DNA from: Nostoc sp. PCC 7120 = FACHB-418 | Lineage (GTDB): Bacteria > Cyanobacteriota > Cyanobacteriia > Cyanobacteriales > Nostocaceae | Length of the DNA: 32,000 bases | Direction of reading: 5' to 3' | NCBI RefSeq assembly: GCF_000009705.1 | Contig: NC_003272.1 | Location: 810,001 to 842,000, forward strand | Shown here: piece by piece, positions 16,761 through 19,595 of the stretch | Layout: every line of letters starts with the position of its first letter | Position numbering within the stretch: position 1 is the stretch's first letter | The notes under the pieces: generated by a model | Seen by the model: only the letters and a program-made list of their open reading frames with translations | Told to the model about the DNA's origin: nothing | Database searches by the model: none | Translations under genes and position numbers: made by a program

Positions 16761-18683
16761 TTATTGAATCAAAATTATTGCCTCTTGTACCTTTGTAGAA
16801 AGAGCCTTTTGTAGTCCTTCCTCTACCTTACTAATTAGTTTGTCAAAAGCATCTTGATTAGCTGTTAGTTGTTCTTGAATAACCTTCTCTAACTCAGGAT
16901 TGACTTGTTTACATATATCGTCAATTTTTCGGTCATTCACAAAACTAGAGCGAATCCAACTAGGAATATTGACATTTGTTTTAATTGCCTCTTTTACCGT
17001 CTCTCGATTTAGCTCCATGCCTGCTGCTATTACCGAAGCCCCGTAAACTAATGCAATAGGCCAGGTTAAATGTCCAGTCAGTATGAGAGTAATGATACTG
17101 GCAAGAGTACCACCACCAATTAATACATTAACGATGAATGCTACTGTTTCGCCTAAAATAGCGTCTCCAATACGCAATTCTGGGTTAACTAAAGCAGGCT
17201 CAATACTATCTTCAAACCTCAAACTGCTTCTGGGTATATGGAACTGGCGACATATCGGGTCAGTTTCTGCGGCTAAATCTGGTTGAATTTTCTGATTAAA
17301 CCAACTGATACATTGGTTGTTAACTATCTTTTGAGCTATATCACTTTGCAGCCACTCTTCTGCTCGCTGCTTCATGGAGGTTTCCAAATCAGCTAAAGTA
17401 CGGATTTGGTTTTTTTGCCAATCTTTCACTCCATGTCTAACTGCGTTCTCAATTAACCCCTCAGCTAATGGCTGAGTCAAAGATTTTATTAACTCTGGAA
17501 TATGCTTACCAATTAATTCTTTGAGCTGGTTTGATTCCAACAGTTTATTGACTTCTTGTTTGAAAGCATTAGCTCGTAAGTCCCAACGTCCCACCCGCGC
17601 TAAACCTAAAGCAATACATCTTTCTGGCTCTGGGTCTGGACGCAGTAAGGTTTGTGGTTCAGGGAAAAATTCCTGACAAAGTTGGTGGGTGAATTTCATC
17701 CGCGATGCGCCACCAGTCATTAACACTAGTTTCGGTGTGATACCTTGCTGGTCTAACTTTTGTTTTGCTTCGTTTAATGCTGCGTGAAATGATTGCAACC
17801 AACTTTTTTCCCCTAGTTCGGATAAAGGTTGGTTCAATATTTCTTCCATCATTAATTTGTTGACTTGGGGGATAAAATAAATCTGTTCGTTGATAGATTC
17901 AAAACCACGGGCGAAGGATTGAGAATCGCTATAAAGCTGTTCGTTAGAAAAGTAATCTTCCTTAGCTTTGCGGCAGGCTAATTCACAACGCGCTTGATGA
18001 TGGGGATATTCTTTAAATACTTTTTCTAGTAATGGTTTTTGTTCATGCTTGGCGAGAGTTTTAGCAAAAATAGCTTTATCAATTAAAGATGCGCCTAAAG
18101 CGTTATTACCAAAATCTAAAGGTATTTCTTGTAAGCTTTTAACTAAAGTAAAATCTGTAGTTGAAGAACCAATATCAACAATTAGTACTGACGAAATAAG
18201 TTTTTCATATTCTAGTTTACCGGCTTCCTTGGCCTGCATAAAAGCTGCCCTTGATTCGGGGACAACATTTAGTAAAGGAATACCAGCTTCTTGCAGTAAT
18301 TGTTGATATTCTGAACGTTCTTTAACTGACCATCCTGAAGGACAACCAACATAAAAGTAAGTAGTGTCTTGAGTTTCAATTTGTCTACTTTCTTTTAATA
18401 AGTGGTAGTAGGTAGCAATAAAAGTACTAATAGTTTTGCGATATTTAGGATCATTATTGGGTTTTTGCTTGAAAGTAATTGCCAACTGAGTCACCCCAGC
18501 TTGAATTAAGGCTTGTTCCCCGACTAGATAACCTAGTTGAGGATGCCAACCCAGTGCAGTAACTTGGTTTTTTTTATGATTAATTTCCAACATTTGGGGC
18601 GGTTCGATGCTCTCCACAATTGCCTTAGCTACTGCTGTTTCACCGTGTCCCAAATCAAAACCGACTGTTTCTAAAATTTCCAT
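16761..18683 (-). CDS. Atypical Hsp70/actin-fold ATPase. It has a nucleotide-binding domain only, plus a C-terminal helical region carrying a hydrophobic membrane hairpin.
   Basis: 640-aa ORF with these motifs in order:
- FDLGHGET (aa 9-16, phosphate-1)
- VPESRAAF (aa 141-148, compare Hsp70 EPTAAA)
- IVDIGSSTTDF (aa 168-178, phosphate-2)
- LMTGGASRM (aa 321-329, adenosine motif)
- PERCIALGLA (aa 353-362, compare PDEAVAxGAA)

No SBD-like sequence follows. A hydrophobic stretch, VAFIVNVLIGGGTLASIITLILTGHLTWPIALVYGASVIAAGM, spans aa 514-556. Confidence 0.85.
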   Translation of the reverse strand: MEILETVGFDLGHGETAVAKAIVESIEPPQMLEINHKKNQVTALGWHPQLGYLVGEQALIQAGVTQLAITFKQKPNNDPKYRKTISTFIATYYHLLKESRQIETQDTTYFYVGCPSGWSVKERSEYQQLLQEAGIPLLNVVPESRAAFMQAKEAGKLEYEKLISSVLIVDIGSSTTDFTLVKSLQEIPLDFGNNALGASLIDKAIFAKTLAKHEQKPLLEKVFKEYPHHQARCELACRKAKEDYFSNEQLYSDSQSFARGFESINEQIYFIPQVNKLMMEEILNQPLSELGEKSWLQSFHAALNEAKQKLDQQGITPKLVLMTGGASRMKFTHQLCQEFFPEPQTLLRPDPEPERCIALGLARVGRWDLRANAFKQEVNKLLESNQLKELIGKHIPELIKSLTQPLAEGLIENAVRHGVKDWQKNQIRTLADLETSMKQRAEEWLQSDIAQKIVNNQCISWFNQKIQPDLAAETDPICRQFHIPRSSLRFEDSIEPALVNPELRIGDAILGETVAFIVNVLIGGGTLASIITLILTGHLTWPIALVYGASVIAAGMELNRETVKEAIKTNVNIPSWIRSSFVNDRKIDDICKQVNPELEKVIQEQLTANQDAFDKLISKVEEGLQKALSTKVQEAIILIQ

Positions 18684-18695
18684 ACTATATATTGT

Positions 18696-19595
18696 CTATG
18701 ATTCTCTGGCTTGGGAGTATGCTGGTTCAATTACCCTACCGCGCCTCAGCAAGCGATCGCCTTTCAACAAAGCTGGCGTAATTGTGACATAATCTTGGTT
18801 ATCAGGGTCGATACTTGGCTCAAAGTCGAAGTAAGTGCGATCGCCATAAGGTGCTTTTGCTTGGTAAATTTGAGCGCGAATCCCCTGAGACATCAAAATT
18901 TGTGGTAAAAGTTTCGTGAGTTCCATCACCATCTGGGGTTTATTCAAAGACGATGCACCCATGAGTCTTTGCAAGAAATTCAAGAGTTCCGGCAATTCTT
19001 CCATATTCCGTTCATCTTTGGCTTTGTCAGATTCAGCAAATCTAGCAACTACTAAATCGATAGTGTTGAGTGCATCAGCCAATTGGGCTAAAAGAATTGT
19101 GCTTTCTACTGTGGGGGTAGGTCGAGCTACTTCTTTGACCTCTGGTAAGTTTGCATCATTTTTCTCAAGTTGCAGCACTACTTCCAATCCTAGCAGCACA
19201 GAAGCGAGTAAAATCCCCATCCATGCGCCTGGAGTCGTATTTGTTAGATAAAATAACCAACCTAAAATACCTACATAAAGTAGTACTTTTAGCACCTTCA
19301 AAATTAATCTATGGGGGGAAGACGTAAGCGCTAGATTAGTAATTTGTTTATGTTCTACCGTCTCAATCTGATCAATTTCAACTGCCCCAAGAATGGGTAT
19401 TGACTGACGTAACACATCTAAGAAAAATGCAGCCAAACGTACTTGAGTTATATTGAGTTCGCTAATATAAATTCTTTCTATATTGTCTAGTTTATTTTGA
19501 ACTAGTTTCACTACATCTTCAATATTACTTAAGTTATTAATCTCTGTCTGAAGTTGATTACTTTCTTCGCTAAAAAGTGAAGTTATCGTTTTCAT
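18696..19595 (-). CDS. Membrane-hairpin protein with a GrpE-like C-terminal domain (putative dedicated nucleotide-exchange factor)
   Basis: 299-aa ORF that ends 12 nt before the start of the Hsp70-like gene. It has an N-terminal coiled coil and a hydrophobic hairpin at aa ~97-141 (LILKVLKVLLYVGILGWLFYL...AWMGILLASVLLGLEVVL). The C-terminal part resembles GrpE:
- LLAQLADALNTIDLV
- LMSQGIRAQI
- FDFEP....VTITPALLKGDRLLRRGRVIEP, compared with the GrpE end pattern V..V.QKGY.L.dRvlRpA.V.V

This remote similarity was judged by eye only. Confidence 0.6.
   Translation of the reverse strand: MKTITSLFSEESNQLQTEINNLSNIEDVVKLVQNKLDNIERIYISELNITQVRLAAFFLDVLRQSIPILGAVEIDQIETVEHKQITNLALTSSPHRLILKVLKVLLYVGILGWLFYLTNTTPGAWMGILLASVLLGLEVVLQLEKNDANLPEVKEVARPTPTVESTILLAQLADALNTIDLVVARFAESDKAKDERNMEELPELLNFLQRLMGASSLNKPQMVMELTKLLPQILMSQGIRAQIYQAKAPYGDRTYFDFEPSIDPDNQDYVTITPALLKGDRLLRRGRVIEPAYSQARES

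Follow-up and report, generated by a model that had tools for sequence, protein, structure and literature searches.

In a 32,000-nucleotide stretch of the genome of Nostoc sp. PCC 7120 (NC_003272.1, positions 810,001 to 842,000; hereafter the window), we analysed two adjacent genes that encode a large protein of 640 amino acids (aa) and a small protein of 299 aa. Together they probably form a self-contained bicistronic module, in which a dedicated membrane-tethered ATPase of the Hsp70 type is served by its own GrpE-type exchange factor; we give this reading a probability of about 0.6. It is carried by an Hsp70-type nucleotide-binding domain (NBD) in the large protein, by a module of the small protein whose predicted structure resembles GrpE, by predicted membrane hairpins in both proteins and by the conservation of the two genes as neighbours. 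An earlier reading of the DNA (the original prediction) had placed open reading frames (ORFs) of 640 and 299 aa here with a 12-nt gap, and their coordinates and spacing were confirmed, on the minus strand. The junction reads TAG acaatatatagt ATG, from the stop codon of the small gene through the 12-nt spacer to the start codon of the large gene, and the spacer scan found no terminator-like sites between the two. The small gene is probably all0712 and the large gene probably all0711. The features of the pair are as follows.

18696..19595, minus strand: small gene, 299 aa, predicted membrane-anchored GrpE-like partner (from the ORF list)
18684..18695, minus strand: spacer of 12 nt between the small and the large gene (sequence read)
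16761..18683, minus strand: large gene, 640 aa, Hsp70-type ATPase with a predicted membrane anchor and no substrate-binding domain (SBD) (from the ORF list)
17586..18683, minus strand: large protein aa 1-366, Hsp70-type NBD with an intact catalytic set (phmmer, hhalign, Foldseek)
17184..17585, minus strand: large protein aa 367-500, stalk of long helices in place of the linker and SBD (AlphaFold2 helices)
17016..17171, minus strand: large protein aa 505-556, glycine-rich hydrophobic hairpin, predicted membrane anchor (hydropathy, conservation)
16764..17006, minus strand: large protein aa 560-640, C-terminal helical tail (AlphaFold2 helices)
19383..19595, minus strand: small protein aa 1-71, N-terminal three-helix domain (AlphaFold2)
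19167..19313, minus strand: small protein aa 95-143, hydrophobic helical hairpin, predicted membrane anchor, glycine-zipper-like (hydropathy, AlphaFold2)
18720..19118, minus strand: small protein aa 160-292, GrpE-like module with a long helix, two bundle helices and a six-strand beta domain (AlphaFold2, Foldseek, hhalign)

Architecture of the large protein

On the evidence of alignment and predicted structure, the head of the large protein is an NBD of the Hsp70 clade, and more than merely an actin-like fold. Using a profile of 19 family members, hhalign aligned residues 5-366 with residues 3-380 of E. coli DnaK (96% probability, E 4e-9), which backs the Hsp70 identity proposed originally. The motifs quoted for it are all present, namely FDLGHGET (residues 9-16), VPESRAAF (141-148), IVDIGSSTTDF (168-178), LMTGGASRM (321-329) and PERCIALGLA (353-362). 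In the same alignment D10, K72, E143, D170, T175 and D177 correspond to DnaK D8, K70, E171, D194, T199 and D201, and all six catalytic residues are invariant among relatives at 33-39% identity. A phmmer search matched residues 80-362 to the Hsc70 NBD (E 2.7e-6), and the helical motif of lobe IIB is conserved in its Hsp70-type form (RCELACRKAKE, compared with RLRTACERAKR in Hsc70). The AlphaFold2 model of the whole protein has a mean predicted local distance difference test score (pLDDT) of 82 and a predicted template-modelling score (pTM) of 0.76. When this model was compared with the Protein Data Bank (PDB) using Foldseek, all 50 matches listed were Hsp70 NBDs (best E 5e-16, target TM-score 0.68), and neither ParM, MreB nor actin was among those 50. 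With its catalytic set complete, the large protein presumably hydrolyses ATP.

Curated family models respond weakly to this head. The original prediction had expected Pfam matches to PF00012 for the large protein and PF01025 for the small one, and neither was obtained for the window proteins; a few orthologues of the large protein do have precomputed PF00012 matches. Its best Pfam match is ParM_N (E 6e-4), followed by a weaker one to MreB-like_C (E 0.075), all of them below threshold. In NCBIfam, HscA reached 19 bits against a cutoff of 620 (E 3e-4), again below threshold, and the YegD model PRK11678 matched at E 5e-4; BeeR matched at E 0.017. The NCBI label on the orthologues, which are 79-94% identical across Nostocales, is 'Hsp70 family protein', and other sources label orthologues 'plasmid segregation protein ParM' or record MreB_Mbl matches.

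Beyond the head, the protein departs from DnaK. The DnaK alignment ends at residue 366 (DnaK 380), ahead of the interdomain linker, and the AlphaFold2 model contains no strand after about residue 350; the large protein is therefore without an SBD, as had been claimed for it. In place of the linker and SBD the model has stalk helices at residues 353-383, 386-423, 430-445 and 448-480, with pLDDT values of 81-93 per 10-residue block up to residue 490 and of 63 for residues 491-500. The predicted membrane hairpin follows, and after it the tail helices 560-570, 575-581, 584-608 and 610-639, with R578 and I639 unchanged throughout the family. Searches of Pfam and the PDB with a profile of the C-terminal 275 aa returned no convincing match, bacterial dynamin-like proteins (BDLP) included. 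A match of this region to UFL1 (E 0.004) was dismissed as a helical coincidence.

The small protein and the predicted membrane anchors

The C-terminal module of the small protein probably has a GrpE-like fold. In the AlphaFold2 model of the whole protein (pLDDT 86) this module consists of helices 165-193, 202-216 and 220-236 followed by six short strands between residues 239 and 290, mostly with pLDDT above 90. When the model was searched with Foldseek against 350,542 PDB chains, ranks 1-4 were all GrpE: Thermus 3a6m chains A and B (probability 0.97 and 0.92), an integrative GrpE-DnaK model and the M. tuberculosis GrpE. Human GrpEL1 appeared at ranks 16 and 20.

The family itself comprises 158 clusters at 50% identity, mostly of about 300 aa, in an exhaustive search of representatives. 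We aligned the profile of its C-terminal half, using hhalign, with a GrpE reference alignment of 11 sequences (E. coli GrpE and ten plasmid-borne grpE genes). The score was 25.7 (P 0.001) over 83 co-linear columns, and the predicted helices and strands are matched with their counterparts in GrpE. In 150 trials, block-shuffled GrpE profiles never scored as high (mean 13.3, standard deviation 2.3, maximum 21.9), and the reversed GrpE controls scored 19.3 and 14.8. The alignment pairs ELLNFLQRLMGA with ELLPVIDSLDRAL, LLPQILMSQGI with MLDVVRKFGV, and KGDRLLRRGRV with NGRTIRAAMV, the last at the end of GrpE KGYTLNGRTIRAAMV. The terminal motif that was first read as GrpE-like, VTITPALLKGDRLLRRGRVIEP, is present at residues 270-291. 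Common descent of this module with GrpE is plausible but unproven, and nucleotide exchange by the small protein is a prediction, backed by the genomic coupling of its gene to that of an Hsp70-type NBD.

The remaining parts of the small protein have no counterpart in GrpE. Its N-terminal domain is modelled as three helices (residues 4-20, 25-44 and 49-65, pLDDT about 95) and gave no Pfam or PDB match. A J-domain at this position was considered and rejected, the HPD motif being absent on inspection. Between this domain and the GrpE-like module lies the hydrophobic hairpin, modelled as helices 95-120 and 125-143.

Hydropathy was scored as Kyte-Doolittle means over 19 residues (KD19), for which the usual transmembrane threshold is 1.6. 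Both hairpins, which the original prediction had picked out, span about 45 residues with an uncharged or nearly uncharged core, reach KD19 peaks of 2.1-2.2 and are split by a short turn into two arms, each about 19-21 residues long; outside them neither protein reaches 1.6. In the small protein the peaks are 2.12 (residues 97-115) and 2.05 (residues 123-141), with the turn at about residues 116-122 (YLTNTTP). In the large protein KD19 rises to 2.16, the only charged residues across positions 511-557 are E512 and E557, and G537 and G548 are nearly invariant in the family; AlphaFold2 renders this hairpin helical at low confidence. The hairpins recur in divergent relatives, in 18 of 19 large proteins and, as two resolved KD19 peaks, in 53 of 78 small proteins. 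Weak Pfam matches that recur in the small family are to Gly-zipper, C19orf12, DUF1269 and DUF456, which are glycine-zipper and two-transmembrane families. A hairpin leaves both of its flanks on one side of the membrane and the ATPase needs cytoplasmic ATP, so all soluble modules of both proteins should be cytoplasmic.

Linkage, distribution and genomic surroundings

A scan of genome collections gave 80 loci, all from Nostocales and at 80% identity or more, a sample that says little about distant distribution. Both genes are present at 78 of these loci, and at 77 the large gene immediately follows the small one. Twelve divergent loci were reached through relatives of the small protein at about 20-60% identity; at each of the ten with a complete downstream gene, a large-protein homologue of 631-728 aa follows the small gene, and at the other two (L083 and L086) the contig breaks off within the gene downstream or shortly past it. 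When neighbouring ORFs were clustered across 90 loci, the large family was found at 89, the small family at 88 and the next family at 38. The small and large genes are thus near-obligate neighbours over a large evolutionary distance, as the original prediction had proposed. It had also noted that there was no DnaJ gene here, and in the 90 loci neither a J-protein gene nor any other third gene is conserved beside the pair; a J-protein could still be encoded elsewhere in the genome.

The named hosts are all filamentous cyanobacteria: Nostocales, Microcoleus, Coleofasciculus, Symplocastrum, Aerosakkonema, Stenomitos and Plectonema. The most divergent loci range from 38 to 60% in GC content. One of them, L083 (1-5004), carries a very divergent pair together with an ATP-synthase operon that encodes only one b subunit, includes an AtpI-like gene and looks non-cyanobacterial; cyanobacteria carry both b and b' subunits. 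The GC range and this operon suggest that the family has spread beyond cyanobacteria. Within Nostocales the small protein is about 60-90% identical. At two further loci we noted a DUF456 gene directly upstream of the small gene (L102:7347-7886; DUF456 is a two-transmembrane family weakly like some of the small-protein hairpins, and the proximity may be coincidence), and CHAT and eCIS_core genes a few kb upstream of the pair (L103).

The pair was found in no phage record and on one of 72,556 plasmid records. The single plasmid copy (L105:8018-10923) lies on the 208-kb plasmid2 of Calothrix brevissima NIES-22, flanked by three integrase genes; its small gene is matched by tblastn in two pieces, is annotated at 268 aa only and looks damaged. 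This copy may have been translocated and be decaying.

The genes around the pair in the window are of an ordinary chromosomal kind, namely glgB (presumably all0713) and those for PBP2, a pentapeptide-repeat protein, a formamidase, a PAS histidine kinase and two giant kinases. No tRNA genes or Rfam matches were found in the window. Upstream of the small gene one further feature was recorded.

19666..19716, minus strand: terminator-like hairpin after glgB (19716-19692), then a sigma-70-like promoter match (19693-19666) upstream of the small gene (consensus matches)

The counts of terminator-like and promoter-like sites do not exceed the shuffled expectation, so that these two sites are weak evidence. 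Convergent with the gene pair are two tandem paralogous ORFs of 1,796 and 1,799 aa on the plus strand (5625-11015 and 11088-16487). On inspection of the translation of the second, it has an N-terminal Ser/Thr-kinase-like motif (HKDIKPSNIL) and a histidine-kinase-like C-terminal end. A segment of about 2.2 kb that lies downstream of glgB, at 22170-24367, has only short ORFs of at most 124 aa on either strand, and the tRNA and Rfam scans of this segment were negative.

Alternative readings and proposed role

Several results weigh against a membrane-tethered ATPase with its own exchange factor. The likeness of the small protein to GrpE, as originally claimed, stood in the Foldseek and hhalign comparisons and did not stand in Pfam, NCBIfam or HMMER. 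PF01025 gave no match to the window protein at E up to 10, and was not among the families listed at E up to 0.1 for 78 diverse members of the small family. NCBIfam and PADLOC scans of the window protein returned nothing, sequence and family-profile searches of the PDB returned no GrpE, and the GrpE hidden Markov model (HMM) gave nothing above its reversed control in 151 family members. Even the positive comparisons are modest: the best Foldseek match has an E-value of 0.12 (3a6m_A) with TM-scores of at most 0.44, and the hhalign probability is 12-21%. The weak Foldseek E-values are due in part to the two-thirds of the query that are unlike GrpE. The linkage also has gaps. In Westiellopsis (L010, 2328-7923) two unrelated genes (435 and 328 aa) separate the small gene from the large one, and at L021 and L026 the large gene is intact (82% identity), but the sequence available upstream of it (about 6 kb at L021, about 2.4 kb at L026) contains no detectable small gene. 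Two divergent pairs have neighbours that hint at conflict systems. At L082 (4415-11702) proteins of 308 and 728 aa are encoded in a tight same-strand array of seven genes with DUF1822, a CHAT protease and AAA_lid_3. At L090 (307-14816) proteins of 308 and 687 aa are encoded near a bDLD1 protein, a 1,522-aa ORF, a DUF87 (HerA-like) ATPase and Peptidase_Mx1. Finally, membrane insertion of both proteins is predicted from hydropathy alone, and the very short hairpin loops mean that a monotopic re-entrant hairpin and a transmembrane one are indistinguishable by this measure. The L082 locus has a D5-type primase and an IS605 transposase nearby, and about 80 aa are inserted into its large protein in the region of lobe IIB; this copy may represent a subfamily associated with conflict systems.

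Compared with DnaK and GrpE, the pair shares an NBD that aligns with DnaK 3-380 with every catalytic residue conserved, a C-terminal module with the GrpE layout for which GrpE is the best PDB match, and gene adjacency, as is often the case for dnaK and grpE. It differs in the missing interdomain linker, SBD-beta and lid, in the missing J-protein gene nearby, in the hydrophobic hairpins of both window proteins, in the extra three-helix domain of the small one and in falling short of the Pfam thresholds for PF00012 and PF01025. The nucleotide cycle is what we propose to be alike, whereas the canonical SBD and linker are missing and the curated-threshold and GrpE sequence-profile tests failed. 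E. coli YegD is similar in being an Hsp70-type ATPase core without a peptide-binding domain, and human HSPA13/STCH is likewise an SBD-less Hsp70-like ATPase. In actinobacteria and firmicutes, HSP70 and GrpE, in some cases with an SBD-less HSP70, have been described together in conflict neighbourhoods of GAP1-N2 GTPases (Kaur et al. 2020, PMC7159879). Those systems are centred on the GTPase; the present module lacks a GTPase, a full-length Hsp70 and any third conserved gene. The Hsp70-like proteins of CoCoNuT systems were ruled out as counterparts; they retain the SBD and are part of McrBC systems. Neither YegD, HSPA13/STCH nor the NBD-only HSP70s of the GTPase neighbourhoods are known to have a transmembrane hairpin, a helical stalk or an anchored GrpE-like partner. 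Synechocystis slr0086, annotated 'similar to DnaK' in papers, may be related to the large protein.

Two systems outside the Hsp70 family are instructive. In BDLP and mitofusin a similar order of modules is seen, with a nucleotide-hydrolysing head, a stalk of long helices, a hydrophobic 'paddle' hairpin and helices that return along the stalk. Like the pair, BDLP occurs in filamentous cyanobacteria, and it has been characterised in Nostoc punctiforme. This would be a functional analogy only, the head of the pair being an ATPase of the Hsp70/actin fold and not a dynamin GTPase. In PilM-PilN and FtsA a cytoplasmic ATPase of the actin superfamily is linked to the membrane, and the gene of a small membrane protein accompanies that of the ATPase; the large protein belongs to the Hsp70 clade and not to the FtsA/PilM clade, its partner is GrpE-like and not PilN-like, and both proteins are predicted to be anchored.

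The same parts could be read as a conflict or abortive-infection module, in which gating by the ATPase would let the glycine-zipper hairpins, from one protein or from both, permeabilise the membrane on infection or another threat, in the manner of the NTPase-regulated systems described in multicellular prokaryotes. The gene arrays at L082 and L090, the restriction of the named hosts to filamentous cyanobacteria, the resemblance of the hairpins to glycine zippers and C19orf12, the GAP1-N2 neighbourhoods and the way the module stands alone among unconserved flanking genes would all fit. We consider this unlikely nonetheless. PADLOC-DB v2 gave no significant match (for the large protein, at best PDC-M49A at E 0.0024 and 14.5 bits, then PDC-M09A at E 0.0055 over the hairpin; for the small protein, none at all), conflict-type genes lie directly beside the pair at only two of the ten complete divergent loci, and the window neighbours, such as glgB, the kinases and PBP2, are ordinary. 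The near absence of the pair from mobile elements points the same way, and the identity of the large protein across Nostocales implies far slower evolution than is usual for defence genes. A further reading accepts the ATPase and doubts the exchange factor: the GrpE likeness would have arisen by convergence or as an artefact of a small fold made of helix plus beta-hairpin, and the small protein would be a scaffold or adaptor that positions an autonomous ATPase, as PilN does for PilM. It draws on the negative outcome of every HMM-versus-sequence test for GrpE, on the low Foldseek and hhalign confidence given above, and on the arginines of the GrpE C-terminal R-x-x-R-P-A, which map uncleanly onto the family-conserved R285-G286-R287. 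This too seems improbable to us. GrpE had been named in advance and then took the top four ranks in an unbiased search; the hhalign score exceeded every control; the secondary-structure elements match those of GrpE in order and number; and the gene adjoins that of an Hsp70-type NBD, which is the place to look for a GrpE.

A third possibility, that the large protein forms actin-like filaments of the ParM, MreB or FtsA type as a cytoskeletal element of filamentous cyanobacteria, with the small protein as its membrane adaptor, is very remote. The ParM_N, MreB-like_C and BeeR matches and the ParM and MreB_Mbl labels on some orthologues would suit it, but the structural matches listed are Hsp70 NBDs throughout, Hsc70 and DnaK match the protein better than ParM or MreB do, the Hsp70-type catalytic K72 (DnaK K70) and lobe IIB motif are conserved, and the partner is GrpE-like. 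It was rejected on the evidence of fold and catalytic residues.

If the pair is indeed a tethered ATPase with its exchange factor, both hairpins would insert from the cytoplasmic face of the membrane and the large protein would hydrolyse ATP. The small protein, probably a dimer as GrpE is, would wedge its beta domain against lobe IIB and release ADP. Movement of the lobes would then travel along helix 353-383, which in the model is continuous from the last NBD helix into the stalk, and on to the membrane hairpins; a peptide-binding domain, the usual receiver of such movement, is absent. Given that there is no linker, SBD or linked J-protein and that helix 353-383 runs into the stalk, we infer that the output is most plausibly exerted on the membrane or on membrane partners. 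It could be remodelling, maintenance or gating, for example, rather than classical J-protein-driven folding of soluble clients. Strong purifying selection, seen in the slow evolution of the large protein, the apparently chromosomal inheritance of the pair and its absence from phages and nearly all plasmids favour a part in cellular membrane homeostasis over a shuttled defence cassette, and we lean towards a role in membrane homeostasis or remodelling. More tentatively, and with considerable doubt, the pair could represent a new class of membrane mechanoenzyme, an Hsp70-fold ATPase whose SBD has been exchanged for a stalk and paddle and whose own GrpE-type factor sets the rate of the cycle. Were this so, filamentous cyanobacteria would use an Hsp70 cycle to bend, fuse, repair or gate their thylakoid or plasma membranes, and the pair would be an ATP-driven, actin-fold counterpart of the dynamin-like proteins.

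In the textbook logic of Hsp70 the NBD drives the SBD, and the cycle is set off by a J-protein and reset by GrpE. In the pair the motor is retained, as is, apparently, the reset factor; the client-binding domain is gone, no J-protein gene lies nearby and both parts are predicted to be tied to a membrane. Full-text literature searches with the locus tags, with Hsp70-like/GrpE-like membrane pairs and with atypical cyanobacterial Hsp70 as subjects found no published description of such a pair, in line with the absence of a characterised function noted originally. Anabaena sp. PCC 7120 is a genetically tractable model in which the pair is directly testable. If the link to an exchange factor is true, the Hsp70-GrpE nucleotide cycle would have found a second use as an independent motor for work at a membrane, and a function would be given to a family that is labelled 'Hsp70 family protein' and 'hypothetical protein' in hundreds of cyanobacterial genomes.

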